Shown piece after piece: positions 1 to 12,722 of a stretch of DNA of 12,722 nucleotides (the first letter of the stretch is position 1; each line of letters opens with the position of its first letter). This stretch comes from a virus (lineage: Duplodnaviria; Heunggongvirae; Uroviricota; Caudoviricetes): IMG/VR virus record IMGVR_UViG_2711768053_000016, positions 1 through 12,722 of that record; one strand, written 5' to 3'. The notes beneath the pieces are model-generated. The model had not been told where the DNA came from. It saw only the letters and a program-made list of their open reading frames with translations, and searched no databases. A program made the position numbers and the translations under genes.

Positions 1-933
1 TCAGCCCTTAAACACGTTATAGCCGAGTTGCTTAGCGACCGATGCCACCATTTTTTGACCGCGAACACTGTTGCCTTCTTCGTCCAGCGGTGGTGAGAAC
101 GCGGCAATTCCCATCACGCCAGGGACGACCGCCAGAATACCGCCACCTACACCGCTTTTGCCCGGTAAACCAACGCGATACGCCCAGTCACCGGAGCGAC
201 CATACAGCCCTTCCATCATCATTTCGGCCAGAATGTACGGCACGTTGTCGGCCTGAAGAACGCGTTCATGCGTCAGCGGATTCACACCCCCCGCCGCCAG
301 CGTCGCGCCAAGTGTTGCCAGTTCAACAGTATTGAGGAGCGTGGAGCACTGACGGGTGTACACGTCACAGGCTTCCATTGCATCACAATAGAGATATTCG
401 GCGGAGTACAGCAGCCAGGCAATGGCCCGGTTATGGAAGTTGGTTGTTTGTTCCGACTGGTTGACTTCGTCAGAGAGCGCTACCTGCTCACCAGCCAGTT
501 GCTGTTGGATATGTAAAATTCGCTGCCAGCGTTGTTCAACATTTTCAGCGTTAATCAGGCTGGTGGTGGCAATGGCGCCAGCATTTACCAGTGGCGAAAG
601 CGGTTTGCCGCCATGCAACTCTAAGGCGATAACTGAGTTAAAGGGCAATCCGGTCGGGTCAGCGCCAATTTTGTCCTGTACCGCCTGCGGGCCGACATCC
701 TCTAACGCAAGGGCTAACGTACAGACTTTCGAGATGGATTCCAGCGCAAAGCGGTAATCACTATCACCCGCGCGATAGATGTTGCCATCGCAGGTCACAA
801 TAGCCACTGCTGCCAGTTGACTAGGTACATTCGCCAGAAAGGGAATGTAGTCGGCATTTTGTCCGCCGTTAAGTGAGTGAAATTGGGTGTAAGCCTGATC
901 CACTGCCTGCTGTAATTTGTTTGCATCTAACAT
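1..933 (-). CDS. glsA: Glutaminase (serine-dependent, beta-lactamase-like fold), complete; stop codon at window bases 1-3
   Basis: 310-aa ORF; I recognise the protein as E. coli YbaS/GlsA1-like glutaminase from memory, including the S-x-x-K nucleophile motif (ESISKVC) and the C-terminal GLPGKSGVGGGI segment. GC-rich host-like composition. Confidence 0.9.
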   Translation of the reverse strand: MLDANKLQQAVDQAYTQFHSLNGGQNADYIPFLANVPSQLAAVAIVTCDGNIYRAGDSDYRFALESISKVCTLALALEDVGPQAVQDKIGADPTGLPFNSVIALELHGGKPLSPLVNAGAIATTSLINAENVEQRWQRILHIQQQLAGEQVALSDEVNQSEQTTNFHNRAIAWLLYSAEYLYCDAMEACDVYTRQCSTLLNTVELATLGATLAAGGVNPLTHERVLQADNVPYILAEMMMEGLYGRSGDWAYRVGLPGKSGVGGGILAVVPGVMGIAAFSPPLDEEGNSVRGQKMVASVAKQLGYNVFKG

Positions 934-1156
934 CTTTTGTTAACTCCTTTTTATAGATGCGGGAGGTAATTCCTCACCCCGGTGCCGATTTTCAGGCATC
1001 TTGATTTAACTTAGCACCCGCAACTTAACTTCAGGAAAACAAAGAGATAAATGTCTAATCCTGATGCAAATTGAGCCAATTTTTTAATCTTTACGGACTT
1101 TTACTCGCCTGGTTTATTAATTTCTTGACCTTCCCCTTGCTGGGAGGATCTCAATA

Positions 1157-1182
1157 GGCGCAGTACCGTAACATACTGCGCC
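1157..1182. other. Perfect 9-bp inverted repeat (GGCGCAGTA-n8-TACTGCGCC) just downstream of the integrase stop
   Basis: Seen directly in sequence. Lies in the glsA-int intergenic region where attL and/or the int terminator are expected; no U-tract follows on either strand, so function is uncertain. Confidence 0.4.
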
Positions 1183-1201
1183 AATTCAACATTTTACAGA
1201 C

Positions 1202-2224
1202 TTAACTACCCTCTAAAATCCCCACTTTGCCTCCAAAGTGTGGACACAATGTGGACATTCCTACAAGAGGATTATAATTCACTGCATCCAATAAATAATC
1301 AGGTGCAAAATGAGCATATGTCATTGTTTGTGAAATATCTGCGTGACCAAGAATTCTTTGTAACGCAATTATATTCCCGCCCTTCATCATAAAATGAGTA
1401 GCAAACGTATGACGCAATGCATGAGCTGCCTGACCATCAGGTAAATTAGGTTTTGCCTCTTTCATTTTTAAACGAAAAGTTTTGTAACTCACACGAAAAA
1501 GTCGACCAGATTCTCGATGCCTTACAATATTTACAACCTCCTCTGAAATGGGAACAACTCGCCGGTCGCCATTTTTTGTAAGCGTAAATATCACCCTATT
1601 ACCCACAATATTTTCCGCTTTGAGCTGATAAGCCTCACCCCACCTCGCACCAGTTGCAAGCAAGAGAACAGCAATCCGGAAATAATCACCAGTGCATAAG
1701 GATAATAACCGCTTAACCTCAGACTCGGTAAAGTAAGACATCTCAGTTTTTGGCTCTTTTAAAGCAGATATTGCCTCTACAGGATTATCCCCATGAAACT
1801 CATCGATCTCAGCCATCGCCTTAAACATACCGCTCAGAGCAAAAAGATCATGGTTAATCGTTGAAGCCTTTATACCTTGCCCCAATCTATATGCCCGGTA
1901 TTCGATAAGGCATCGACCATCAATCTGATAAATCATGGGATCCCCCATATCCTGGCAAATACAGCTTAACGCACTAAGCCTACGATTAGCGTAGTTCTTA
2001 TTACGTCCAATGAGCTGCCACCACAAAGCGATAAACTCACTCAGTCGCCGCTTGTCTGCAGGACGACTCAGGTAGTCATGGTTCTGATACTTTGCAATGA
2101 TGCTTCGTTCAAAAGCATGCGCCTCCGCTTTTCTCTCAAACTTCCGCCGGATACGCTTTCCGTCGCGCCCGCGCGGCCTTACATCCACTTCATAGCGACC
2201 ATCTTCGAGCTTCTTAACAGACAC
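1202..2224 (-). CDS. int: P2-type tyrosine integrase (site-specific recombinase)
   Basis: Recognisable similarity to P2 Int N-terminus (KKLEDGRYEVDVRPRGRDGKRIRRKF) and tyrosine-recombinase catalytic signature (GARWGEA ... HALRHTFATH ... LGHADISQTMTYAHF). Maximal ORF begins at ATG 2254; I prefer the GTG at 2224 because GGAGGG lies 7 nt upstream and the product then aligns with the P2 Int start. Confidence 0.9.
   Translation of the reverse strand: MSVKKLEDGRYEVDVRPRGRDGKRIRRKFERKAEAHAFERSIIAKYQNHDYLSRPADKRRLSEFIALWWQLIGRNKNYANRRLSALSCICQDMGDPMIYQIDGRCLIEYRAYRLGQGIKASTINHDLFALSGMFKAMAEIDEFHGDNPVEAISALKEPKTEMSYFTESEVKRLLSLCTGDYFRIAVLLLATGARWGEAYQLKAENIVGNRVIFTLTKNGDRRVVPISEEVVNIVRHRESGRLFRVSYKTFRLKMKEAKPNLPDGQAAHALRHTFATHFMMKGGNIIALQRILGHADISQTMTYAHFAPDYLLDAVNYNPLVGMSTLCPHFGGKVGILEGS
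1239..1257. repeat. Tandem direct repeat TGTGGACA-caa-TGTGGACA (11-bp spacing) inside the 3-prime end of int; candidate arm-type Int binding sites
   Basis: Repeat seen directly in sequence. Its role as arm sites is inference from P2-like attP architecture, where Int arm sites lie next to the int 3-prime end. Confidence 0.35.
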
Positions 2225-2293
2225 AAGAAGTCCCTCCAACAGTCTGTTCACCATCCTGAAAACAAATGGTGAAAATGTAATGTTTATAAAGCG

Positions 2294-2593
2294 TTAACCA
2301 ATCTGTTTCCCGGAGGGGCCAGATTGTGTTGTCTCTGGCCCAGTGTGTGCAAGAGCCGGGGCGATCTGACCTCGGCTAGGGTCTATACGGTCATACATGA
2401 ACCAATCTTGATACTTATGGAAACGGGGATGACCAAAGAGTTTGATCGCAGCCTCCAATGACATTTTCGCCTTGCCTAGCTCATAACCGTTGTACGTACC
2501 ATAATTTACACCAATCAAATCAGCAACTTGCTTAGATTTAAGGCGTTCTGAATCTCGGATTAACTGTAGTTTTTCATGTTGTGGTATTGACAT
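2294..2593 (-). CDS. P2 C-type immunity repressor (99 aa)
   Basis: Same length as P2 C and recognisable similarity (ADLIGVNYGTY..YELG, GQIAPALAH). Located between int and the divergent early operon as in P2. Confidence 0.8.
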   Translation of the reverse strand: MSIPQHEKLQLIRDSERLKSKQVADLIGVNYGTYNGYELGKAKMSLEAAIKLFGHPRFHKYQDWFMYDRIDPSRGQIAPALAHTGPETTQSGPSGKQIG

Positions 2594-2717
2594 AATATGT
2601 CAGATCTCTCATTGTATGCATCAATTGACACTCGCAAGCGGCGTTGACCGCTCATAACACCAAGGGCTTGCTTAGCTAAACATGCCTCAACAAGCCTCAA
2701 GCAGTGGAGTTTATCAA
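2594..2717. promoter_or_regulatory. Lysis/lysogeny switch region between C and the cox-like gene (expected Pc/Pe promoters and C operators)
   Basis: Position by analogy with P2/186. Contains TTGACA (2625-2630), a second TTGAC 19 bp downstream, and on the minus strand a TACAAT about 18 nt upstream of the C start. Exact promoter and operator assignments are not resolved. Confidence 0.5.
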
Positions 2718-3179
2718 ATGAAAGAAATGCGAGAAAACGAATTAAATATGGAAACTCATTTTTTACGTCAGTTCCCGCTAGACAACGGACGAGCTCTGCG
2801 TACCTGCAAAATGACAGAAACACAAGCTGCGCGTATCAGAGACATCAGCCTAGAAGAGCTACAAAAACAAATCTTCGCCACTCCGGAAGAGTTTGCTTAT
2901 CTAACTGGTCGCACCCTCAAATCGGTGCGCAACCTGATGGATCGTGCGCAGGTGCCAGTTCATAGAGAAGGCATGCCCGGGTCAAAGCGCCCTAAACGCT
3001 TCATCATGTTGCAAGAATACTGGAAAGCTGTTGCTCATTGCCGCGCTCTCATCACTCCAGAAGAAAAACACTACATTGATCGTCTGATGCGTGACAAGAA
3101 GACTTATCGCCGCACAACCGGTAAAGAGCATCGAGTTCTAAAACGCAATAGCATCAGTGCACTGCAGGCAGGACTATAA
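2718..3179 (+). CDS. Cox-like DNA-binding regulator/excisionase with a C-terminal extension (153 aa)
   Basis: First gene of the rightward operon. GGAG lies 8 nt upstream of ATG 2718 (the track ORF starts at ATG 2682). The pattern FAYLTGRT..VRNLMD..PV..EYW resembles P2 Cox (FAKLIGKS..VRRMID..PV..EYW), but the protein is longer than P2 Cox. Confidence 0.55.
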   Translation: MKEMRENELNMETHFLRQFPLDNGRALRTCKMTETQAARIRDISLEELQKQIFATPEEFAYLTGRTLKSVRNLMDRAQVPVHREGMPGSKRPKRFIMLQEYWKAVAHCRALITPEEKHYIDRLMRDKKTYRRTTGKEHRVLKRNSISALQAGL

Positions 3180-3181
3180 AC

Positions 3182-3595
3182 ATGAATACTGATAGCACAG
3201 CTAAAGCGCTACTGGAACGACTGGAAACCCTGAAAAACGAAAAACCACACCAGAAGCTTTTGCTGGTTTTTCCGGGCAAACCACAGGTTGAAATCAGCAT
3301 TGACTACCACGAATTACACAGAACGTTCGCTGACCTGATGGCATTTAAATCAAAGCTTCAGAATGGCGAAGATTTGAAAAATGTCACCCTACGTCCCGAC
3401 GATGAATACGGTCATTTTTGTCGAGATGACGTCAAAGAGACGATTGGAATGATTTTAGAACCAATATACGGCGTTGCGCTCCGTTTTCCCGCCAAAGAAG
3501 TCTTTGAGCTTTATCGACAAATTTTAAGCAGTGACAACATGGTTATTGAGGTCGGAAATGTGCCAGAGAAAATCTCCGGCACGGGAGTTAAATAA
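3182..3595 (+). CDS. Hypothetical protein (137 aa), early operon
   Basis: ORF begins 2 nt after the cox-like stop on the same strand. No recognisable motif. Confidence 0.6.
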   Translation: MNTDSTAKALLERLETLKNEKPHQKLLLVFPGKPQVEISIDYHELHRTFADLMAFKSKLQNGEDLKNVTLRPDDEYGHFCRDDVKETIGMILEPIYGVALRFPAKEVFELYRQILSSDNMVIEVGNVPEKISGTGVK

Positions 3596-3778
3596 TCACT
3601 CAGGGAAAGTCCATGTACTTGCCTGAGGATATTTTTCCAACGTGAGCTTACGCACTTCGTGCATAAGCTTACGAATGGTATTTGATGGCTCTCCTTTATT
3701 CGGAGGATTAACCGGCGCTTTCTCTAATACATAAATTGCCGCATTTAGCGCATCAATAACCTTTTTATCATAGGACAT
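3596..3778 (-). CDS. Hypothetical small protein (60 aa), oriented against the early operon
   Basis: ORF with AAGGA 7 nt upstream of its ATG on the minus strand. Its stop abuts the stop of the 3182..3595 gene (convergent, no spacer). No recognisable motif. Confidence 0.45.
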   Translation of the reverse strand: MSYDKKVIDALNAAIYVLEKAPVNPPNKGEPSNTIRKLMHEVRKLTLEKYPQASTWTFPE

Positions 3779-4281
3779 ATTTTATTCCTTTGTGGTTGGT
3801 TGAACACGCGCCCTTTACAGCCCCTTCAAGACTGCGGGCGGTGGAAAAATACCACAAAACCATGCGCCGGGCATGGCTAAAACCCGGCACAAATTCGCAA
3901 CAGCAGCAGGATATTTTTGTATGAAGCAACGACGTAATTCTTCACAGCAACGCTTCCGCAACGGGGCGGAACGCCACGCTAACCGTTTCGCTACCAGTGC
4001 ATCACGCAGCAGCTCTCGCTACAGCCTGAGTGATACACACGCAACGCCGGATGGCTACCCAGTAAAACAAATCGGCGAGCATGCCTAGCTGATTGAGAAA
4101 GCTGGAATCGTGGTCCACAAATGCCCACGCAATCCGCTTACCGGAAACCGCATTTTTGCATTGAGCTGCGGCGACAATCAGTTCGGGCAGGATTTCACAT
4201 TATACGAAGCACTTCGCACGGTTGATCGTCTGCTTCGCGGACAAAGTTTTATTAAACAGGTTGATTTATAACAGGTGATTT

Positions 4282-4560
4282 ATGACCAAAGAGTATGCAC
4301 AAGGTGTATTTATCCGTTTTATTGATTTTCGCGGTGAACTGTTATTACGCGCATCAGCCATTGACGGAGTTGTTCCATCCGAAAAAAACGCAGCTACTTA
4401 CGTTTATCTGAACGGTACGCGCCTGACTGTGGAGCTTCCGTACCAGACCGTACGAGAAATCATTAGCGAAGCTGAAAAGGCACGTCAGATTAATAGCGAT
4501 GAACCATACATCGAAATTATCTGCATGGATTCAAAAGCAGAAATCCAGAAGGCAGATTAA
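4282..4560 (+). CDS. Hypothetical protein (92 aa)
   Basis: ORF with AGGTGA immediately upstream; first gene after a roughly 500-bp non-coding gap. Confidence 0.6.
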   Translation: MTKEYAQGVFIRFIDFRGELLLRASAIDGVVPSEKNAATYVYLNGTRLTVELPYQTVREIISEAEKARQINSDEPYIEIICMDSKAEIQKAD

Positions 4561-4571
4561 AGGACGTTGCA

Positions 4572-4814
4572 ATGGACCAGGAATACAAAACTCTCGTCAA
4601 TAAAGCACTTGAGCGCTTTCATTTTCGCTTAAACACGTCAGGCCCCCACGCTGAACACGCAGCCCATGATTCATTAGCGAGGGCTATCAGAAGTCTTTAT
4701 GACGTAGCTTTTTACGCTGACGATTTGGATGCGATTAACGAGCTTTCCGAACTCGTCTGCGCCGCAGAATGCGGAGAACGCATTGAACCGTATAAGCTGG
4801 GGGATATCGCATGA
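4572..4814 (+). CDS. Hypothetical protein (80 aa)
   Basis: ORF with AAGGA 8 nt upstream, 11 nt after the preceding stop. Confidence 0.6.
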   Translation: MDQEYKTLVNKALERFHFRLNTSGPHAEHAAHDSLARAIRSLYDVAFYADDLDAINELSELVCAAECGERIEPYKLGDIA

Positions 4815-4924
4815 GTATATTTATCTCATGGCTTGTTCTGATTATTTCGGTGGTCTGCGCCATTGGGATTATGCGAATTATTCATTCAGTAAAAAAGATT
4901 GAACGTTTTTTCTCTGATGAATAA
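4811..4924 (+). CDS. Small hydrophobic peptide (37 aa, MSIFISWLVLIISVVCAIGIMRIIHSVKKIERFFSDE), predicted single TM helix with basic C-terminus
   Basis: Not in the supplied ORF track (too short). ATG overlaps the upstream stop (ATGA) and GGGGGA lies 7 nt upstream. Hydrophobic run of about 20 residues. Confidence 0.4.
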   Translation: MSIFISWLVLIISVVCAIGIMRIIHSVKKIERFFSDE

Positions 4925-5017
4925 CGATACAAATAAAACATCAAATTAAATAAGAAAACGTGAAAACCATCCGTATTAACGGAGGTATTCGCACACGCAA
5001 ATAACGGAGATATAAAA

Positions 5018-5428
5018 ATGCACGCAAAAGAAGAAGGTATCATCAGTGCACTGAAAGAAATTTCAAAGATGGAAAGCGAAGTAGCGAAAAAAGCCGTAGC
5101 AAATGATCATATAGACATCGCTACCCACGCAATGATAGTCACAAAAGTCACGGCAGAAGCCGCCAAAATCATCGAAGAACAGGGTGCGGAACTTACGCTT
5201 TTCAAAACTCAACCAGTCACCGGACTGGATTTATCTAACACCGGACGTCTTATTTACACAATTGGCTCGGAGCTACAGCGATACACCATTATCGCCGGAT
5301 TACAGGACAAATACCTGATCACTCCTCACCCCATAAGAGAATCAGAAATTCTGACAAATCTCCGCCTGATAGAGCGCTCTCAAGTTGCATTCATTGATGA
5401 CGCACAGCACACCGTATTTAACGCATAG
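5018..5428 (+). CDS. Hypothetical protein (136 aa)
   Basis: ORF with GGAG 8 nt upstream, after an AT-rich spacer. Confidence 0.6.
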   Translation: MHAKEEGIISALKEISKMESEVAKKAVANDHIDIATHAMIVTKVTAEAAKIIEEQGAELTLFKTQPVTGLDLSNTGRLIYTIGSELQRYTIIAGLQDKYLITPHPIRESEILTNLRLIERSQVAFIDDAQHTVFNA

Positions 5429-5451
5429 GGTTATTGGACAAAGGGGGCGCA

Positions 5452-5655
5452 ATGGCAATTAAGCATTTTCCCGTCGTTCGCTTTACCTCCAGAGGGCGCG
5501 AATACGAGGTCGACGAACGCCTGATTACAACTATCGACAAACATCGTTCGGAAAAGGATGCACACCACATCTACCTCACTGACGGCACTTACTTCTGCGC
5601 CACTAATGTGGTGCGGGTGAACCTTATCCGACAGGTACAAGAGTCACGCAGATGA
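5452..5655 (+). CDS. Hypothetical protein (67 aa)
   Basis: Track ORF begins at TTG 5434; I prefer ATG 5452, which has GGGGG 5 nt upstream. Stop overlaps the next start (ATGA). Confidence 0.5.
   Translation: MAIKHFPVVRFTSRGREYEVDERLITTIDKHRSEKDAHHIYLTDGTYFCATNVVRVNLIRQVQESRR
5617..5655. repeat. 39-bp direct repeat, copy 1 (GTGAACCTTATCCGACAGGTACAAGAGTCACGCAGATGA)
   Basis: 33 of 39 positions identical to copy 2 at 5999-6037. Both copies encode a C-terminal ..RQVQES.. tail and end in an ATGA stop/start overlap. Confidence 0.7.
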
Positions 5656-5918
5656 CCATTCTGGACTATATCGCTACTCATCCGGGTTGTAGCGGCGGAG
5701 AAATCGCCGCAGCACTGAATACTCCAACCACAGCCATTAATGCTGAGTTACGCCGACTTTGGCGCAGCGGCTTAGTCATCAGAACAAACCGCAGCACAGG
5801 TGGTCACGCTCGCAAAACAGGAGGCCGGGCTTCTTACCACGTAAACCCGATGCCGTTCGGGTGTGGCAACCCACTAACCCACATGTTTAACCAGCTACTG
5901 AAGGAAGCCAGAGCATGA
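5652..5918 (+). CDS. Putative winged-helix DNA-binding protein (88 aa)
   Basis: N-terminal pattern LDYIATHPGCSGGEIAAAL....AELRRLWRSGLVIR is typical of small wHTH regulators. Start and stop both overlap neighbouring genes. Confidence 0.5.
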   Translation: MTILDYIATHPGCSGGEIAAALNTPTTAINAELRRLWRSGLVIRTNRSTGGHARKTGGRASYHVNPMPFGCGNPLTHMFNQLLKEARA

Positions 5919-6037
5919 GCACCATCAACCACCAGGAACCACGCGAACTGACGACTGCCGTACAAAGAATGTCTACCCAAAAATCACTGCCATTCCGTGT
6001 GAGCCCTGTCCGACAGGTACAGGAGTCACACGGATGA
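5915..6037 (+). CDS. Small ORF (40 aa), possible remnant or duplicated gene tail
   Basis: Not in the ORF track. Its last 12 codons are copy 2 of the 39-bp repeat; translationally coupled on both sides. Could be non-functional. Confidence 0.3.
   Translation: MSTINHQEPRELTTAVQRMSTQKSLPFRVSPVRQVQESHG
5999..6037. repeat. 39-bp direct repeat, copy 2 (GTGAGCCCTGTCCGACAGGTACAGGAGTCACACGGATGA)
   Basis: See copy 1; spacing between copies is 382 bp. Confidence 0.7.
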
Positions 6038-6252
6038 ACAGAAGGAGAATTACACGCAGACATCGCCGCACACGCCTGAGCTCCCCGCCAACACTAAAGG
6101 AACTCATTCAAAGCGAGATCGGTGATTTCTTCGCTGGGTTTGGATCACCTGGCGAACCAGAAACACCAGAAGCGATGCAGCGCGAACTCATGATGCGCAT
6201 CGATAACGTTTTTGACTTTTTCCTGAATAACAAAAGAGAGCAACCGACATGA
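6034..6252 (+). CDS. Hypothetical protein (72 aa) with arginine-rich N-terminus (MNRRRITRRHRRTR) and acidic C-terminal half
   Basis: ORF translationally coupled upstream and downstream. The Arg-rich motif suggests nucleic-acid binding; this is inference only. Confidence 0.55.
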   Translation: MNRRRITRRHRRTRLSSPPTLKELIQSEIGDFFAGFGSPGEPETPEAMQRELMMRIDNVFDFFLNNKREQPT

Positions 6253-6452
6253 ACGAAAGGACCTGGTTTCGCGCATACATGTGGGCGCTGGTATGCGCCC
6301 TCTTTTCTCTCATTCTGTATGCAGGACTACTCCCCCGAATGATTTCATCAGACAGCTCCTTCCTGGTATTGCTGGGCATTTTCATTGCCATGCTGTACCC
6401 GGCAGGCGTTGTTCGCCTTTTCAGTAAGTACATCAAGGAAATCAAACAATGA
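6249..6452 (+). CDS. Small integral membrane protein (67 aa, two predicted TM helices)
   Basis: Two hydrophobic segments (WALVCALFSLILYAGLL and FLVLLGIFIAMLYPAGVV). Stop overlaps the start of the SPFH gene (ATGA). Confidence 0.6.
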   Translation: MNERTWFRAYMWALVCALFSLILYAGLLPRMISSDSSFLVLLGIFIAMLYPAGVVRLFSKYIKEIKQ

Positions 6453-7279
6453 AGAAATTCAAACTCTTTCAGATTCTCCCGCTTTTTGCCGCCATCCTGC
6501 TGGTTGGTTGCGATCGCGTTGAGCCAGGTAATGTGGGCATCAAAGTCAACAAACTGGGCGACGACAAAGGCGTCGGCGAAGTAGTTGGCGTTGGCCGCTA
6601 CTGGACAGGCTGGAATACAGAGGTTTACATCTTCCCGACCTTCAAACAAATGAAGACCTACGATGAGCCGTTCAGCTTTCAGATGAGTGACGGCACAACC
6701 ATCGGCTATCACATCGGTGTGGCCTACAAGGTTGATCCATCCAAAGTTACCACAGTGTTTCAGACCTACCGCAAAGGCGTGGATGACATTACCGACACTG
6801 ACCTGCGCCAGAAGATCGCCGATGCACTCAACCGACTGGCCAGCAAAATGACCACCGATAAGTTTATCGACGGTGGTAAGTCTGAACTGCTGGATTCAGC
6901 ACTTAAAGATATTCAGGAAGAGATGACCCCCATCGGCATTCAGGTCATGAGCCTCTCTTATGTCGGTAAACCGGAATATCCGCCAACCGTTATCGACAGC
7001 ATTAACGCCAAAGTCACGGCAAACCAGAAAACCCTGCAACGCGAACAGGAAGTCAAGCAACGCGAAGCAGAAGCCAACATGCTGCGCGCAGAAGCTGCCG
7101 GACAGGCTGATGCCATTCGCACAAAAGCCCAGGCTGAAGCCGACGCCATTCGTTTACGCGGTGAAGCTCTGCGCCAGAATCCCGGCGTTATGGAGCTGGA
7201 AGCAATCAACAAATGGAACGGCACGCTACCGCAATACATGACCAGCAATACCGCTGTTCCGTTTGTTCCGGTGAAGTAA
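6449..7279 (+). CDS. SPFH/band-7 (stomatin/prohibitin/HflKC-like) lipoprotein (276 aa)
   Basis: N-terminal signal peptide with lipobox LLVGC. SPFH-like entry motif (VEPGNVGIKVNKLG), followed by an Ala/Glu/Arg/Gln-rich coiled-coil segment (EAEANMLRAEAAGQADAIRTKAQAEADAIRLRGEA) typical of HflK/HflC-type proteins. Family assignment from memory of the domain signature, not a search. Confidence 0.75.
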   Translation: MKKFKLFQILPLFAAILLVGCDRVEPGNVGIKVNKLGDDKGVGEVVGVGRYWTGWNTEVYIFPTFKQMKTYDEPFSFQMSDGTTIGYHIGVAYKVDPSKVTTVFQTYRKGVDDITDTDLRQKIADALNRLASKMTTDKFIDGGKSELLDSALKDIQEEMTPIGIQVMSLSYVGKPEYPPTVIDSINAKVTANQKTLQREQEVKQREAEANMLRAEAAGQADAIRTKAQAEADAIRLRGEALRQNPGVMELEAINKWNGTLPQYMTSNTAVPFVPVK

Positions 7280-7285
7280 TTAAAC

Positions 7286-7330
7286 CCGGCCAGTGAAAAT
7301 CGCTGGCCGGAGCAGTATCAGGATTTTTTT
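7286..7330 (+). terminator. Hairpin (CCGGCCAG-n9-CTGGCCGG) followed 13 nt later by a T7 run; possible terminator of the early/cargo operon
   Basis: Perfect 8-bp GC-rich stem starts 7 nt after the SPFH stop. The U-tract is not immediately adjacent to the stem, so efficiency is uncertain. Confidence 0.4.
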
Positions 7331-7447
7331 AGCATGCCGTTCTCACAAAAAAACCGCTTGCCATGCCGCAATCAGTCAGGTTACATTTCCGCTGCACCTC
7401 ATAAAACGGGTGCCGGGTTTCGCAGCCTGCTGATCAACAAAGCGCAC

Positions 7448-7468
7448 AACCGCGCCAGCGGTTTTTTT
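7448..7468 (+). terminator. Compact hairpin (AACCGC-GCCA-GCGGTT) immediately followed by T7; intrinsic-terminator-like
   Basis: Seen directly in sequence. Lies in a roughly 320-bp stretch with no convincing coding potential. Confidence 0.45.
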
Positions 7469-7650
7469 GTGCGTACCGCATTGCCGCACATTTTTTCGCA
7501 TCAGAATTATGGTGGGGCGTACGGGGCCGACTTCGGTCGGGCCGGGTTTTCTTTGTTGACCGGTACTGCGAACCTCGTACGTCTCGCCACCCACAGTTTC
7601 GCAGCTCTGGATGGCGAGTATTTAAAACTTACCAACAAAGAGGCCACACC

Positions 7651-7881
7651 ATGGCAAACCGCAAACAGCACCGCGCTATCGCGGAGCGTCGTCACATCCA
7701 GACTGAAATCGATCGCAGACTCACCCGCGCTGCACACATCGCCTTTATCATGCAATCCAACACATTGCACAGACTCAACAGCACTATTTCAGCCGACTAC
7801 TGCGCCGCTGTATTCAGCTATCTGGCGGAAGACCTCCTGTCTCTTCAGGATCTCATCCAGCAGCAAAACAAACTCCATTAA
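7651..7881 (+). CDS. Hypothetical protein (76 aa)
   Basis: AAAGAGG lies 7 nt upstream of the ATG. Overlaps, in another frame, the long track ORF 7334..8320, whose upstream part I consider non-coding. Confidence 0.5.
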   Translation: MANRKQHRAIAERRHIQTEIDRRLTRAAHIAFIMQSNTLHRLNSTISADYCAAVFSYLAEDLLSLQDLIQQQNKLH

Positions 7882-7954
7882 TCCCTGTTCCGGGCCTTTC
7901 CTGCACCTTGCGGCGGGAGGCCTTCGCACATCTGTAGTAAAGAGGATTGCCGCA

Positions 7955-8320
7955 ATGATTCTCGCCAACGACTTTCTTGAATACCTGCTCAACACAGAGC
8001 GTGATCTTGCCGTTCGCGTGCGTGACCGTTATGACATGTACCTGAAATCCCTGCCCGCACCGCAGCTCGCTGACGGAAAAATTGTTATTGATGGTCGCTA
8101 CATGATTGACAGCCACGAGGGGAATTACAGGCTTTACCGCATTGAAGGCGGCACCCCGTCCGTTATTGGCATTTACCAGCGCCCATCCTCTGCGATCGTC
8201 GATGTGATTGCCGACAGCATCCGCATCACACACCACCATGCCGACACAGAAGACACTGTGCTGGAGATTCAGCGGCTGGCTGCCGTTTGCCGTGACACTC
8301 TGAATGGCATGACGAAGTAA
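7955..8320 (+). CDS. Hypothetical protein (121 aa) immediately upstream of the replication gene
   Basis: Internal ATG of the track ORF 7334..8320, with AAAGAGGA 9 nt upstream. Ends 6 nt before the gpA-like start. Confidence 0.55.
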   Translation: MILANDFLEYLLNTERDLAVRVRDRYDMYLKSLPAPQLADGKIVIDGRYMIDSHEGNYRLYRIEGGTPSVIGIYQRPSSAIVDVIADSIRITHHHADTEDTVLEIQRLAAVCRDTLNGMTK

Positions 8321-8326
8321 ATCAGT

Positions 8327-11149
8327 ATGACGACAGAGTACATCAGGGACTGGCAACAACCGCGCCACGCAGTAGGACGTGAAGGAACGGAGATCCCCGC
8401 ACCTGAATCCGCACTTTCCTCCTGGCTGGATGCCTACCGGGCAGAGAACGAACGCCGCCAGGAAATGGCTGATGCGGCGTTCTCCGCCACACCGCTGGGC
8501 AACCTGATTAATAAAAGCCTGGACGCACAGGAAAAACAGGACAAAACCATCACACTGGCAGGAGACGCCAGAAAGCAGGCACGCGGCGCGGTGGATGAAG
8601 CCATGGCCTCGCTGCGCCTGCTGCCGTCCTATCTGCGCGATCCGCTTATTCGCCACCTCTCCTTCCTGCGCAAAAAACAGGAAGCTGATCGCCGGAAAGG
8701 CAAAAAGAGCTGGCAGGCTGAACGCTACGCGCGCGGAACCCTGCGCAAAATATTCGAACGCCTGGACCGCACCGACCACCGCTGGCTGACACCGGGTTAT
8801 CGCTCCCTTGCCGGACGCGAACGCCTGGACGATTTGCTTTACCTGCCGCAGCTCAACAAACACCAGATACAGACGCTGGCCACCATGACGGCGGCGATGT
8901 TCAGCAGCACCTTCGAAAAACTCTGCGATGGCTTTGGCGCGACCGATGGCGAACTGACCATGGATGTAACGCTGAAGGCGTATCAGATGCTGGCCCGCAT
9001 GGCGTTACACCTGCACATCATGCCTCCACATTATGACGCACTGACAACAGATAAAGACCGGAGGAACGAACCGGACACGGAGCTGCTGCCGGGCGCAATC
9101 CTTCGCCTGACCTGTGCGGAATGGTGGAAACGCAAACTGTGGCTGTTACGTTGCGAGTGGAGAGAAGAACAACTCCGCGCCGCCTGTCTGGTTTCCAGAA
9201 AAACATCACCCTATCTGAGCCAGGACGCGTTAAGCGAGTTTCGCGCACAGCGCGAGAAAACACGCGATTTCCTGAAAAGTTTCATGCTGGAAAATGAAGA
9301 CGGGTTCACGATTGATCTCGAGACAGTGTATTACGCGGGAGTAAGTAACCCGGTTCACCGTAAGGCAGAAATGATGGCCACCATGAAGGGACTGGAACTT
9401 CTGGCCGAAGCCCGTGGCGACAGAGCGGTGTTTCTGACTGTCACCTGCCCGTCAAAATACCACGCAACAACGGAGAACGGTCATCCGAACCCCAAATGGA
9501 ACGGGGCCACCATGCGCGACTCCAGCGATTACCTGGTTAACACGTTTTTTGCGGCGGTCCGCAAAAAACTGAACCGCGACGGCCTGCGCTGGTATGGCAT
9601 CCGCACGGTGGAGCCTCACCATGACGGCACCGTGCACTGGCATATGATGGTCTTTGCTCATCCGGAAGAAATCGACAGCATCGTGGCCATCACCCGCGAT
9701 ATTGCCATTCAGGAAGACCGCCACGAGCTGGGCAATGATATTACTCCGCGCTTTAAGGTGGAGTATGTCGACGGCTCCAAAGGCACACCAACCAGCTATA
9801 TCGCGACCTACATCGGAAAAAACCTGGACAGCCGCGCCGTGGATGGCATCGACCCGAAAACGGGCAAGCCACGCGTTGACCACGAAACCGGAAAATCAAT
9901 GGCCGAGAGTGTGGAACGCGCCATCGGCTGGGCGCGCCTTCACCGAGTCCGCCAGTTCCAGTTCTTTGGCATCCCCTCCCGTCAGGTATGGCGTGAACTC
10001 CGCCGCCTTGCCAGCCAGATGGCACGCAACCCGGAAGGCCCACAACGGCTGAAGGATGATGCAATGGATGCGGTACTCGCTGCCGCTGATGCCGGGTGTT
10101 TTGCCACCTACATTGAGAAACAGGGCGGCGTACTTGTTCCACGCAAAGACTACCTGATTCGCACCGCCTACAACCTCGCAGATGAGCTGAACGATTACGG
10201 CGAACAGAGCGTACAGATTTACGGGATCTGGTCACCACTCATCGGGGAATCCTCCCGTGTGTGCACGCACCCGGATAACTGGAAGCTGGTAAGACGTAAA
10301 CCGGAAGCGGAAGACAGCACCCGCGAAAATGGTTTTGACCTTCAGGGCGGCCCTGCCGCCCCTTGGACTCGTGGCAATAACTGTCCCCGTGTACAGGAAA
10401 CGGACAACAACGGGACAGAACAGCCGGAAGAACGGCCAGCACCGTGGCCGCAGCTCCCTGACGGCGTTGAAGTGAACGAATGGATGCGCTCACTGAAACG
10501 GCACGAACGCCGGGCGCTGATGCGTTCGCTTCGTGCCAAACAGGCAAAAAACAGCAGTGATGAAATGCAGAGCTGGACACAGAGCCACAAACAGCAGCGG
10601 CCTTTGCCTGATAACCACGAATTACTCGCTAAAGAATGGCGGGAATCTGCCGAATCTCTCGGCCTGCATATCGGTGAACAGCAGATGCAGCACCTGTTAC
10701 GGGGCGGCAGCCTGTACGTTGACGGCAGCATCATTGCACCGCAGGGATTTGAAATTGTACGCAAACCGGATACCCGCCCGGACAGCCGAATCACGCAGCT
10801 CTGGCAGCGCCTGAGCCGTAATCACGGCGTAAGCAGCACGGAGATCCGCCATAACCCGGTCGCCAGCTATCTGGAACAGCTGGGGGCATCAGACCCCGAA
10901 GCCGCCGCACGTCTGGCATCCACACTTCAGCAGGACCAGAACACCATGAAAACCCCCGTTACCGTGCTTTCTGACATGCTGCGCGCCATCCGTGACGCAG
11001 AGCACGCACAGAGAATCAGTGAAACCACTGAACGCGCCCACCGCAAAGCAGACCTGCTGCGGGGTAGCCTGACCAGTGGAAACAAAAAACAGACAGAAAC
11101 GGGATTCACAAATCCCGTAAATGAGCAAAAAACGTGCCGCGATATATGA
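8327..11149 (+). CDS. P2 gpA-family rolling-circle replication initiator (HUH endonuclease), 940 aa
   Basis: Rolling-circle initiator motifs in order: AVFLTVTCPSKYH (motif 1), HDGTVHWHMMVF (HUH, His437/His439), and SYIATYIGKN with two tyrosines 4 residues apart (Tyr491/Tyr495). Position at the end of the early operon matches P2 gene A; the protein is longer than P2 gpA. Confidence 0.85.
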   Translation: MTTEYIRDWQQPRHAVGREGTEIPAPESALSSWLDAYRAENERRQEMADAAFSATPLGNLINKSLDAQEKQDKTITLAGDARKQARGAVDEAMASLRLLPSYLRDPLIRHLSFLRKKQEADRRKGKKSWQAERYARGTLRKIFERLDRTDHRWLTPGYRSLAGRERLDDLLYLPQLNKHQIQTLATMTAAMFSSTFEKLCDGFGATDGELTMDVTLKAYQMLARMALHLHIMPPHYDALTTDKDRRNEPDTELLPGAILRLTCAEWWKRKLWLLRCEWREEQLRAACLVSRKTSPYLSQDALSEFRAQREKTRDFLKSFMLENEDGFTIDLETVYYAGVSNPVHRKAEMMATMKGLELLAEARGDRAVFLTVTCPSKYHATTENGHPNPKWNGATMRDSSDYLVNTFFAAVRKKLNRDGLRWYGIRTVEPHHDGTVHWHMMVFAHPEEIDSIVAITRDIAIQEDRHELGNDITPRFKVEYVDGSKGTPTSYIATYIGKNLDSRAVDGIDPKTGKPRVDHETGKSMAESVERAIGWARLHRVRQFQFFGIPSRQVWRELRRLASQMARNPEGPQRLKDDAMDAVLAAADAGCFATYIEKQGGVLVPRKDYLIRTAYNLADELNDYGEQSVQIYGIWSPLIGESSRVCTHPDNWKLVRRKPEAEDSTRENGFDLQGGPAAPWTRGNNCPRVQETDNNGTEQPEERPAPWPQLPDGVEVNEWMRSLKRHERRALMRSLRAKQAKNSSDEMQSWTQSHKQQRPLPDNHELLAKEWRESAESLGLHIGEQQMQHLLRGGSLYVDGSIIAPQGFEIVRKPDTRPDSRITQLWQRLSRNHGVSSTEIRHNPVASYLEQLGASDPEAAARLASTLQQDQNTMKTPVTVLSDMLRAIRDAEHAQRISETTERAHRKADLLRGSLTSGNKKQTETGFTNPVNEQKTCRDI
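11099..11118. promoter_or_regulatory. Perfect palindrome ACGGGATT-caca-AATCCCGT (site 1), overlapping the last codons of the replication gene
   Basis: Seen directly in sequence. Near-identical site 2 lies 73 bp downstream, directly upstream of parM; candidate ParR operator or centromere half. Confidence 0.4.
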
Positions 11150-11171
11150 AGCGCGCACAAAACAGGCAAAA

Positions 11172-11191
11172 ACGGGATTTCAGAATCCTGT
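11172..11191. promoter_or_regulatory. Palindrome ACGGGATT-tcag-AATCCTGT (site 2), 35-54 nt upstream of the parM start
   Basis: One mismatch from a perfect palindrome. Flanks match site 1 (AAACGGGATT ... GTAAA). Position is consistent with a parC-like autoregulatory/centromere site. Confidence 0.4.
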
Positions 11192-11225
11192 AAACGATTA
11201 ATTAATCAACATAAGGAAAAGCGAC

Positions 11226-12185
11226 ATGAAAATTTGTATCGACGACGGCTCCACCAACATCAAGCTGGCATGGACTGAGAACGGCGAACGCCGCAACGCC
11301 ATCAGCCCGAACAGCTTCAAGTCGGAATGGTCTGCGCCGTTCGGTGGCACGCAGCCCGCGAACTACATGCTTGATGGCGTGCGCTATGGTTTTGATCCGG
11401 TCAGCGATCGCTTTGTCCAGACGACCGACACGCAATACCAGTACAGCGATGTGAATGTCATTGCCATTCATCACGCGCTGGTCAAATCAGGCATCACGCC
11501 ACAGGAGGTGGATGTGGTTGTCACCCTGCCACTGAGCGAGTATTTCGACACAAACGCACAACCGGACATGGCCAACATCAACCGCAAAAAAGCGAACGTT
11601 ATGCGCCCGGTGGAGTACCAGAACGGCGAGGCATTCACTATCCGTAACGTGCGGGTTATGCCTGAATCCATTCCGGCTGGCTTTAAAGCACTGGCTGACA
11701 TGAGTCCGTTTGAATCCCTGCTGATTGTGGATTTGGGCGGAACCACGCTGGATGTGGCAAAGGTTCAGGGGCAACTGGCAGGTATCAGCCAGGTGTTTTG
11801 CGATCCACACGTAGGCGTTTCTCTGATGGCCGGTGCCGTGCTGTCGGTGATGGCCACCAACGGTATGCGTACCAGTCACCACATCGCTAATACCATTATC
11901 GAACATCGCCACGATGAAGCCTGGCTGCGCCAGCACATCCACAATAACGCACATTACGCCAGCCTGATGGCAGTTATTCGTGAAAAGGAGGAAACACTGA
12001 AACAACGCGTGATCCGCGCGCTGGCGGGTTTTTCGGGTTACGGGCGGGTGATGGTTGTAGGTGGAGGAGCGGAGATTGTGGCACCCGCTATCCGCGAAGC
12101 CTGCGGAGTTAATGCGACTTTCATCGCGGACGGGGTGCCACAGTTTGCTCTGGTTAATGGGCTGTACGCAATGGATAAGGAGTAA
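11226..12185 (+). CDS. parM: Actin-like segregation ATPase, ParM/StbA family (319 aa)
   Basis: Recognisable similarity to plasmid R1 ParM (from memory): MKICIDDGSTNIKLAW (phosphate-1), VMPESIPAG, LIVDLGGTTLD (phosphate-2), VMVVGGGAE (adenosine motif). AAGGA RBS upstream. Confidence 0.85.
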   Translation: MKICIDDGSTNIKLAWTENGERRNAISPNSFKSEWSAPFGGTQPANYMLDGVRYGFDPVSDRFVQTTDTQYQYSDVNVIAIHHALVKSGITPQEVDVVVTLPLSEYFDTNAQPDMANINRKKANVMRPVEYQNGEAFTIRNVRVMPESIPAGFKALADMSPFESLLIVDLGGTTLDVAKVQGQLAGISQVFCDPHVGVSLMAGAVLSVMATNGMRTSHHIANTIIEHRHDEAWLRQHIHNNAHYASLMAVIREKEETLKQRVIRALAGFSGYGRVMVVGGGAEIVAPAIREACGVNATFIADGVPQFALVNGLYAMDKE

Positions 12186-12189
12186 ATCA

Positions 12190-12504
12190 ATGACGACACC
12201 AACCAGACGGATAAGTTTCTATCTGAAGCCCGCCGTCGTCAAGAGCGAACGGGAGGCGTGCAGTTACCTCGACAGCCTGCCAGCCTCCGAACGCAGCCGC
12301 GCACAACGCGCGGCTTTTCTGGCCGGACTGGCTCTTATAAAACGCATCCCCGCGTTGGCGTATTCGCTGGCAGAATGGTCAGAAGACGAAATAAGGATGC
12401 CACCGCTACCAGTACAGCCTGAAAAACCGGCGCAACCAGCAGCAGACTGCGCCCCCCATATGCAGCAGGTGAAGAAGAATATTCAGGCGTTTTTTCCGAA
12501 GTGA
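12190..12504 (+). CDS. parR: ParR/StbB-family centromere-binding protein (104 aa)
   Basis: N-terminus RRISFYLKPAVVKSEREACSYLDSLPASERSRAQRAAFLAGLAL parallels R1 ParR (RRTIAFKLNP...DTLDSIPQGERSRLNRAALTAGLAL, from memory). ATG 12190 has AAGGAG upstream and sits 5 nt after the parM stop; the track's longer ORF (12061) would overlap parM and is rejected. Confidence 0.75.
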   Translation: MTTPTRRISFYLKPAVVKSEREACSYLDSLPASERSRAQRAAFLAGLALIKRIPALAYSLAEWSEDEIRMPPLPVQPEKPAQPAADCAPHMQQVKKNIQAFFPK

Positions 12505-12518
12505 AAACAGGAGTAACT

Positions 12519-12722
12519 ATGTCCACCATTACCAAAGAATGGTTACAACGTAAAATCACAGAGTTTAAATCGTGGCGCGAAGACATCCCGTTCGGTCTTG
12601 ATGAAGACGATCACAATATGTTAATCGCACTGGAAATCGCACTTGCATCACTGGAAGCAGAGCCAGTGGCATGGATGCACGCAAATAATCCTATTGGAAT
12701 GCCGGCGATAACAAGAAGTAAA
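12519..12722 (+). CDS. Hypothetical protein, 5-prime portion only (68 codons; continues beyond window)
   Basis: ATG 12519 with GGAG 8 nt upstream; open to the window end. No recognisable motif in the visible part. Confidence 0.5.
   Translation, partial: MSTITKEWLQRKITEFKSWREDIPFGLDEDDHNMLIALEIALASLEAEPVAWMHANNPIGMPAITRSK

Follow-up and report, generated by a model that had tools for sequence, protein, structure and literature searches.

An accessory two-gene cassette for a small membrane protein and an SPFH lipoprotein in the early region of a P88-type prophage

The 12,722-nucleotide stretch analysed here, hereafter the window (positions 1 to 12,722 of the IMG/VR record IMGVR_UViG_2711768053_000016), is the left end of a P88-type P2-like prophage (Xuanwuvirus, Peduoviridae). 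At 6249-7330, its early operon carries a two-gene cassette, in which a 67-residue, two-helix membrane protein is translationally joined to a 276-residue lipoprotein with an SPFH domain. SPFH proteins are universal membrane scaffolds, and the structures of their cages have recently been solved. The small protein is a genuine partner of the SPFH protein, and the cassette is an accessory unit that recurs in temperate and virulent phages. We hold with moderate confidence that it is a mobile cassette of phages of Gram-negative bacteria, whose products would be made early in lytic growth, form an HflK/C-like cage facing the periplasm, and condition the inner membrane.

The pair has already been deposited and catalogued (P88 gp11/gp12, phrog_1130, phrog_200), and no new sequence is involved. 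The 1082-bp stretch 6249-7330 is 98.2% identical at the nucleotide level to Escherichia phage P88, where gp11 is annotated as ‘membrane protein’ and gp12 as ‘lipoprotein / putative SPFH domain protein’, the SPFH protein being 100% identical. In P88, the pair occupies the same early-operon position, between an Ea22-like gene and the derepression and replication genes. The locus is, thus, a catalogued family and a well-defined experimental target, rather than a new-sequence discovery. What is new here concerns the partner (its conservation and natural fusions), the predicted topology, the precise limits of the insertion, the mosaic exchange of the SPFH segment in its mature form, and how widely the cassette is distributed.

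Architecture and Fold of the SPFH Lipoprotein

The cassette and its parts are as follows (positions in the window):

6249-7330, + strand: cassette (small membrane gene, SPFH gene, and hairpin)
6249-6452, + strand: small membrane protein, 67 amino acids, two helices (open reading frame (ORF), phrog_1130)
6435-6452, + strand: coupling junction (Shine-Dalgarno sequence AAGGA at 6435-6439, SPFH start codon ATG at 6449-6451, small-gene stop codon TGA at 6450-6452)
6449-7279, + strand: SPFH lipoprotein, 276 amino acids
6449-6511, + strand: predicted lipoprotein signal peptide (residues 1-20) and acylated Cys21, with Asp22 at +2 (from sequence)
6515-6976, + strand: SPFH/band-7 globular domain, approximately residues 23-176 (Pfam, AlphaFold, Foldseek)
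6983-7177, + strand: long coiled-coil-type helix, residues 179-243, 65 residues (AlphaFold model, phmmer)
7187-7279, + strand: short second helix and conserved C-terminal tail (K-W-N-G-x-L-P ... P-F), then stop
7286-7330, + strand: GC-rich hairpin (7286-7310) and distant run of seven T (7324-7330) (fold energy)
6250-7343, + strand: accessory insertion (moron-like indel) with the two genes and the hairpin (comparison with cassette-less P88-like prophages)

The larger protein matches Pfam Band_7 (PF01145) over residues 23-209 (E 5.7e-31; 108.4 bits against a cut-off of 23.6) and the lipoprotein family phrog_200 (E 1.8e-112). Its N-terminus (MKKFKLFQILPLFAAILLVG followed by CDR) combines a basic start (MKKFK), hydrophobic residues at 6-17, and a lipobox, LVGC, at 18-21, which fits the pattern [LVI][ASTVI][GAS]C. 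The cysteine is kept in most relatives, and G-C-D-R is almost invariant among 22 close homologues. An AlphaFold monomer model built on 22 homologues (predicted local distance difference test, pLDDT, 73.6) shows an SPFH beta/alpha core, one long helix, a short second helix, and a low-confidence tail. Searched against the PDB with Foldseek, its top matches are exclusively SPFH cage subunits, near full length (E 1e-12 to 1e-7). These comprise erlin1/2, prohibitin, HflK/C, stomatin, flotillin, and QmcA-YbbJ, with a probability of 1.00 to erlin, prohibitin, HflK/C, stomatin, and flotillin over 260-310 columns. In the model, helix 179-243 is equivalent to CC1, the wall helix of SPFH cages.

By sequence, the closest solved protein is HflK (phmmer E 1e-4; residues 115-241 against HflK 180-306). 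Membership of the HflK/HflC family itself was rejected, with 23.5 bits against a required 159.4 for TIGR01933 (hflK) and 25.7 against 134.4 for TIGR01932 (hflC); NCBIfam returned only sub-threshold HflK/HflC/FloT matches. At the C-terminus, W256, G258, and P261 are invariant even in family members with just 32-61% identity to the window protein. A low pLDDT would be expected for a tail that folds solely in the oligomer, and the conserved W-x-G-x-x-P motif lies where SPFH cages close, which is suggestive as to assembly.

A preliminary description of this DNA, made from its letters, had proposed a 276-residue lipoprotein with an SPFH-like domain and a long HflK/C-type coiled coil, preceded by a 67-residue two-helix protein overlapping its start by ATGA. 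Band_7, the lipobox, AlphaFold, and Foldseek all agree with this picture, both genes and their overlap lie where it placed them, and the profile and structure searches of 6449-7279 that it called for (Pfam and Foldseek) both returned the SPFH fold. It had also suggested a search of 6249-6452 for NfeD-like or other partners; Pfam gave no NfeD match, at E values up to 1, for the window protein and 13 diverse homologues.

The Small Partner and Its Predicted Topology

The 67-residue protein has hydrophobic stretches at approximately residues 6-33 and 31-59, with basic residues at both ends. It matches phrog_1130 (membrane protein; E 3.7e-22), which PHROGs places in the category ‘moron, auxiliary metabolic gene and host takeover’. 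Its ATG overlaps the stop codon of the upstream Ea22-like gene, and the AAGGA Shine-Dalgarno sequence lies nine bases 5' of the SPFH start codon. An antisense ORF of 174 amino acids (6188-6712, - strand) gave no family match and was rejected as a gene.

Word-based homologue searching with the small protein found close E. coli relatives only, and the family was traced with a custom profile built from cassette ORFs. Among 14 diverse partners aligned, P29 and S33 are invariant and G43 nearly so. The most conserved part is the turn between the helices, L-P-x-M-I-S-S-x-S in the window protein and (L/V)-P-x-(L/M)-(I/V)-S-(A/S)-x-(S/D)-T as the consensus over the 14. A Pfam scan of these partners at E values up to 1 gave scattered hydrophobic matches only and no named family; RseC_MucC appeared sub-threshold in 4 of the 14 (best E 0.0085, below the cut-off), and holin families in a single one (E 0.17-0.56). 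A profile search of the PDB with the small partner yielded no meaningful structure match.

In all of the 78 evaluable loci, from 80 IMG/VR loci surveyed, the partner lies directly upstream, overlapping or abutting the SPFH start; these loci are near-identical, and fit for pairing statistics, not diversity. P88-like, Stx2 lambdoid, P1-like, and N4-like (Klebsiella, Stenotrophomonas) phages also have a homologous small ORF immediately before the SPFH gene. In a Stx2 phage and in the P1-like RCS47, unannotated two-helix ORFs of 62 and 78 amino acids, respectively, overlap the SPFH start, as does KpCHEMY26 gp28, labelled ‘2 TMDs N in C in’ by its depositors. Further matches to the partner profile are an unannotated ORF that overlaps the lipoprotein gene of Pokken, gp115 of PVP-SE1, which lies one gene upstream of the SPFH gene, and ORF14 of the LUZ24-like phage Ab22, which lies two genes upstream. 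The gp44 protein of phiE125 has two helices and a comparable turn; the upstream neighbour is a soluble protein in phiEa104 and a three-helix protein in phiCbK.

The partner is usually missed by annotation pipelines. It is unannotated in GenBank/RefSeq in Stx2 phage EH2201 (our record L002, 3759-3947), RCS47 (L003, 3730-3966), Pokken (L092, 2272-2499), and E. coli SC418 (L094, approximately 6353-6550), and the pairing is, therefore, invisible in public annotation. Natural fusions of the two proteins occur in 17 of the 150 best family clusters, 16 with the partner at the N-terminus and 1 at the C-terminus (P0146). In the 16 N-terminal fusions, the hairpin precedes the signal-like segment. The window protein leaves the first 80 positions of the phrog_200 profile unmatched, and these probably represent such a fused hairpin.

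From the distribution of positive charges, the small protein is predicted to be an N-in/C-in hairpin, with both ends cytoplasmic and the conserved turn periplasmic. The N-terminal fusions fit this arrangement, because the signal-like helix that follows a hairpin with a cytoplasmic end would bring the SPFH part to the periplasm, and the topology works only with a periplasmic SPFH part. Asp at +2 is the classical Lol-avoidance signal for inner-membrane retention in Enterobacteria, and Asp22 is nearly invariant in the enterobacterial homologues. Some relatives have a plain N-terminal membrane helix instead of a lipobox. In two abundant clusters listed for E. coli/Enterobacteriaceae (P0114 and P0117; longest contigs 78-252 kb), the lipobox Cys is replaced by Tyr (GIIG-Y-DRV); these proteins, therefore, cannot be lipidated and are presumably anchored by an uncleaved signal helix. 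Together, Asp +2, the membrane-helix relatives, the Tyr variants, and the fusions point to the inner membrane as the probable location of the SPFH lipoprotein.

Insertion Boundaries and Mosaic Exchange

The cassette is a clean indel. In the cassette-less E. coli prophage L087, homology with the window ends at 5994, the end of the alignable upstream gene, and resumes at 7344; in this prophage, the sequence found at window position 7344 begins no more than about 20 nt after the stop codon of the Ea22-like gene. The insert, thus, corresponds to 6250-7343. A 3-kb query over the cassette found the whole stretch in 127 E. coli genomes, and a much larger set (roughly a thousand records, estimated from 26 of 50 evenly sampled rows of 2000 ranked records) with both flanks at just 35-55% coverage and no SPFH gene. 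Another relative, L088, has different content again at this point, and the insertion site is, therefore, variable. Nothing of the kind lies between cox and A in P2. As regards the features of a moron, the clean indel 6250-7343 and a 3' hairpin are present, a promoter-like site was not found, and the start overlaps the upstream stop. Both the gene order and the P2 comparison support the preliminary description, which had placed the pair in a phage early operon beside the immunity region and noted that the P2 early region has no such gene; the survey that it called for shows variable presence among P2-like prophages, with the clean indel in L087, so that the pair is not a core gene.

Comparison of the window with a Stx2 phage and RCS47, representing three unrelated coliphage families, revealed that the mature SPFH proteins are 96-98% identical, the small partners just 25-46%, and the signal peptides 32-65%. 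In 60-nt bins, nucleotide identity is approximately 45-50% across the first 240 nt (with a single RCS47 bin reaching 65%), rises to 82-100% exactly at the lipobox, and drops to 33-50% past the stop codon. This jump indicates that unrelated coliphages have come to share the mature SPFH segment recently, each lineage keeping an old, divergent allele of the partner.

Distribution in Phages and Bacterial Genomes

The SPFH gene is present in 711 of 5426 complete E. coli genomes (13%), in similar numbers on chromosomes and on plasmids of phage-plasmid size (87-120 kb), and UTI89 is among the carriers. The RefSeq name ‘SPFH domain-containing protein’ appears in hundreds of enterobacterial genomes. 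Older records, such as phiP27 and Stx2 phages, label the protein ‘serine protease’, a name that was probably transferred from the stomatin-associated NfeD proteins of the protease type. A protein search found the SPFH protein in 385 of 50,697 phage records, and an exhaustive profile-free search gave 221 clusters (50% identity) at E < 1e-30.

Temperate carriers include P88-like phages, Stx2a/Stx2d lambdoid phages and phiP27 (near xis-int), and P1-like phage-plasmids, for example, RCS47 (between upl and the tRNA/ban region); the approximately 108-kb phage records Cyrano and PhiR41_1 and the Burkholderia phages phiE125 and phi1026b were grouped with them. Virulent carriers include N4-like Schitoviridae of Klebsiella, Erwinia, and Stenotrophomonas, the rV5-like PVP-SE1, and LUZ24-like Pseudomonas podoviruses, and the FelixO1-like phiEa104, Caulobacter phiCbK, jumbo phages, and Lak megaphages were grouped as virulent. 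In the virulent phages inspected, the gene lies among early/middle genes (RNA polymerase subunits, dUTPase, ligase, DNA polymerase, thymidylate synthase). In the ten phage contexts inspected, the cassette was located in early/middle regions, and never beside lysis genes (endolysin, spanin). According to the depositors of phiE125, gp43 resembles YPMT1.49c of Yersinia pestis pMT1 and HCM2.0006c of Salmonella pHCM2; these virulence-associated phage-like plasmids, therefore, also carry members of the family.

Expected Timing of Expression

A consensus scan found no sigma-70-like promoter site between 5139 and 7358, and the same crude scan detected none upstream of the cassette in a Stx2 phage or a P1-like phage. 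In lysogens of P2, C silences the early promoter Pe, as the annotation of the P2 record also states. Since the cassette has no promoter-like site and its start overlaps the stop of the upstream early gene, it is expected to be expressed during lytic growth. Early lytic expression, after induction or infection rather than in the resting lysogen, would be the default expectation.

The preliminary description had the unit closed by a hairpin, which is real as a structure: the 7286-7310 hairpin has an 11-bp stem (-21.8 kcal/mol, z -2.66). The hairpin was rejected as a textbook intrinsic terminator, as the T-run begins 13 nt past the stem and the terminator scan made no call there. It lies inside the insertion, but belongs to the P88-type insert alone, is absent from the Stx2-phage and P1-like contexts, and is, thus, not a conserved part of the cassette. 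Terminator-like sites inside the P2 early operon (P2 record) provide a precedent.

Proposed Function and Alternatives

We infer that the lipoprotein, with Asp at +2, stays at the inner membrane, its complete mature SPFH part facing the periplasm and oriented like HflK/C. There, it would oligomerise into an HflK/C-, prohibitin-, or erlin-like dome on the periplasmic face. The two-helix protein would be the membrane-embedded partner, inside or at the base of this assembly, and the conserved periplasmic turn would be its only part able to touch the SPFH protein. The dome might cover a membrane patch, together with the small partner and, perhaps, a captured host protein. Made early after induction or infection, the pair would fence off or condition the inner membrane to the benefit of the phage. 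The wide spread and exchange of the SPFH cassette imply a selectable function in infection. As to what this function may be, superinfection exclusion in lytic growth is ranked slightly ahead of an alteration of the FtsH-type turnover of membrane proteins. Exclusion of a second genome, or insulation from membrane-acting host responses, is preferred because the pair is expected to be made early and to sit in the envelope, is accessory, and occurs in temperate and virulent phages alike. The more specific proposal of a new periplasm-facing nanocage, used by temperate and virulent phages to seal the cell against a second DNA entry or membrane-targeting defences, or to trap a particular host protein, for example, FtsH, is tentative, and we regard it as possible rather than probable.

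Several points weigh against the proposed periplasmic dome. No feature points specifically to the blocking of DNA entry or to FtsH. The partner is not obligatory, being absent beside the phiEa104 SPFH gene and different in phiCbK. The monomer model is of moderate quality (pLDDT 73.6), and Asp +2 may be a weaker retention signal when followed by Arg at +3. Because the promoter scan looks crudely for consensus sites, it may miss a weak or other-sigma promoter, and expression in the lysogen is, hence, possible. In the P1-like phage, the cassette follows a divergent gene and must own some promoter, and none was detected. Finally, for a prophage protein that may be related, the sole experimental report found effects on virulence and immune stimulation (PM0222; PMC9872710).

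That same report underlies the idea of a lysogenic-conversion surface or vesicle lipoprotein benefiting a pathogenic host through virulence or immune modulation, which we consider very unlikely. The Pasteurella multocida prophage HflK/C-like protein PM0222 (GenBank OAZ06802.1; 25-35 kDa), possibly related, is reported to occur in outer-membrane vesicles and to be a TLR1/2 agonist whose deletion attenuates virulence (PMC9872710); the occurrence of the cassette in Stx2 phages and UTI89 would also suit such a role. However, PM0222 is only a possible member of the phage SPFH family, TLR1/2 activation is general to triacylated lipoproteins, Asp +2 predicts inner-membrane retention, and the family is common in virulent phages of environmental bacteria (Caulobacter, Stenotrophomonas, Erwinia). 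Defence expressed from the lysogen, either abortive infection by membrane damage or exclusion of incoming DNA, is unlikely, although the cassette is an accessory element that some related prophages have and others lack, at a variable site, occurs in many temperate phages and phage-plasmids as well as in 13% of complete E. coli genomes, and has its small protein in the ‘moron, auxiliary metabolic gene and host takeover’ category. Its own promoter was not detected, the cassette is translationally joined to a repressed early operon, and it is abundant in strictly virulent phages, where protection of a lysogen is meaningless. PADLOC-DB 2.0 gave no match for the SPFH protein and just a 21-residue match (E 0.0066) for the small protein, and no paper tying SPFH proteins to anti-phage defence was found in the literature. 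The lack of a significant PADLOC match agrees with the preliminary description, which knew of no established defence family with this architecture. That description had proposed exclusion, abortive infection, or membrane remodelling: lysogen-expressed defence and abortive infection are weakened by the lack of a detected promoter and the abundance in virulent phages, and exclusion or remodelling during infection remains compatible with the data.

The main alternative to exclusion is that the phage cage mimics HflK/C and captures or displaces FtsH, thereby altering the degradation of phage or host proteins, with effects on lysis-lysogeny regulators or on membrane protein quality control. HflK is the closest solved relative by sequence (E 1e-4), the predicted periplasmic orientation and the domain order are those of FtsH-enclosing HflK/C (PDB 7VHP, 7WI3), and the early operon is where lysis-lysogeny decisions are made. 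The scores, however, lie far under the HflK/HflC family cut-offs, the phage has one lipid-anchored SPFH protein where HflK/C has two subunits with membrane helices, the gene occurs in virulent phages that have no lysogeny decision, and none of the features examined bears on FtsH binding, which makes FtsH capture or displacement doubtful. The least probable explanation is a lysis-timing module, in which the SPFH protein would restrain or organise a pore formed by the two-helix protein in the manner of a class II holin or pinholin. The size and the N-in/C-in two-helix layout fit class II holins, and SPFH proteins are generally known to organise membrane patches. Nevertheless, the cassette was never beside endolysin or spanin genes in the phages examined, the holin matches (1 of 14 partners) are non-significant, it is the periplasmic turn that is conserved, not the helices, and natural fusions to the SPFH protein suit a structural partner better than a free pore former. 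Overall, lysogen defence, lysis timing, and host virulence are all judged less likely than exclusion.

The cassette is a 1-kb system, cleanly present or absent in similar prophages and found in tractable phages (P88, P1-like, N4-like, LUZ24-like), so that it is directly testable. Were the nanocage reading true, a viral SPFH protein would be assigned a function for the first time, and phage and host would be seen to interact at the membrane in a new way. A true exclusion or anti-defence device would be a new mechanism, and FtsH modulation, if true, would provide a link to the classic hfl lysogeny phenotype.

Neighbouring Genes and Other Features of the Window

The genes and RNAs around the cassette are as follows:

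1-933, - strand: glutaminase gene adjoining the prophage
1202-2254, - strand: integrase
2294-2593, - strand: C-type repressor
2682-3179, + strand: Cox-like gene, first of the rightward early operon
5652-5918, + strand: MarR-type winged-helix gene, early operon
6034-6252, + strand: Ea22-like gene, directly upstream of the cassette
7394-7468, + strand: isrK-type Hfq-binding small RNA, downstream of the cassette (68.6 bits, E 2.9e-13)
7505-7594, + strand: C4 antisense RNA (77.8 bits, E 3.2e-14)
7651-7881, + strand: gene for a 76-residue ‘derepression protein’ (phrog_3688)
8327-11149: P2 gpA-type replication endonuclease
11226-12504, + strand: ParM/ParR-like genes

Downstream of the cassette, isrK is flanked by a promoter-like site (7358-7387) and a clean terminator (7448-7463 and T-run). 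The order of isrK, C4 RNA, and derepression gene resembles the P1 immI / Gifsy-1 IsrK anti-repressor switch, although the early region that holds it is P2-like. A 328-residue ORF (7334-8320, + strand) overlaps both RNA genes and was rejected as spurious over its first two-thirds; only its last 121 codons (7955-8320) match a phage family, phrog_3237. Replication gene A is followed by genes for a 319-residue ParM (StbA_N, E 1.8e-82) and a ParR-like partition protein. Such a plasmid-type actin segregation system is unusual in an integrating P2-like prophage; P88 has the same genes, and the equivalent position in P2 holds the lysogenic-conversion genes tin and old.

Upstream, the DUF4761 gene (3921-4268, + strand) is 95% identical to P88 gp04 and has an in-frame stop codon (4086-4088) in place of a Trp codon of P88; its reading frame is broken into ORFs 3873-4088 and 4110-4271, and it is likely a pseudogene. 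Between cox and this gene lie a 137-residue ORF (3182-3595, + strand) and a convergent 60-residue ORF (3596-3778, - strand), for which no PHROG, Pfam, NCBIfam, or PADLOC family match was found. A query with 3150-4300 gave a single match covering at least 80% in one of the 5426 complete E. coli genomes, and, among the 8 matches listed, the top 2 alone extend back to approximately 3200. Region 3182-3790 is a rare second insert between cox and the DUF4761 gene. A 136-residue ORF (5018-5428, + strand; phrog_9338) is missing from the P88 record at this point and present in the E. coli relatives L087 and L094; it is another variable gene of the early operon.

Comparison with Known Systems

Genome papers call the role of the SPFH protein in phages unclear (PMC13239085, PMC7760394), and no functional study of a phage SPFH protein was found in the literature. 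A close parallel, and a top structural match, is HflK/HflC (PDB 7VHP, 7WI3, 9CZ1), with which the phage protein shares the SPFH core, the long wall helix, the C-terminal tail, and a predicted periplasm-facing position at the inner membrane. HflK and HflC differ in being a pair of paralogues with N-terminal membrane helices, whereas the phage has a single SPFH gene and a lipid anchor; identity to the phage protein in structural alignments is only approximately 15-19%. HflK/HflC enclose FtsH.

The SPFH-NfeD operons (QmcA-YbbJ, PDB 8Z5G; YqiK-YqiJ; archaeal stomatin-STOPP) likewise combine an SPFH gene with a small membrane partner, sometimes fused, and the QmcA subunit matches the phage model structurally (E 3.5e-7). 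In contrast with these operons, the phage partner has 67 amino acids and two helices, lies upstream, and has neither the NfeD OB-fold nor a Pfam match. QmcA faces the cytoplasm, whereas the phage SPFH protein is predicted to be periplasmic.

Superinfection-exclusion proteins (T4 Imm and Sp; T5 Llp; phi80/N15 Cor; P22 SieA) offer a possible functional analogy, as early accessory envelope proteins, among them lipoproteins and small two-helix inner-membrane proteins. Llp and Cor are small outer-membrane lipoproteins that plug the receptor. No sequence or fold relationship between the superinfection-exclusion proteins and the phage pair was found, and none of them is an SPFH protein. With P88 gp11/gp12, there is no difference of substance: the window carries the same cassette, in a mosaic relative of P88.

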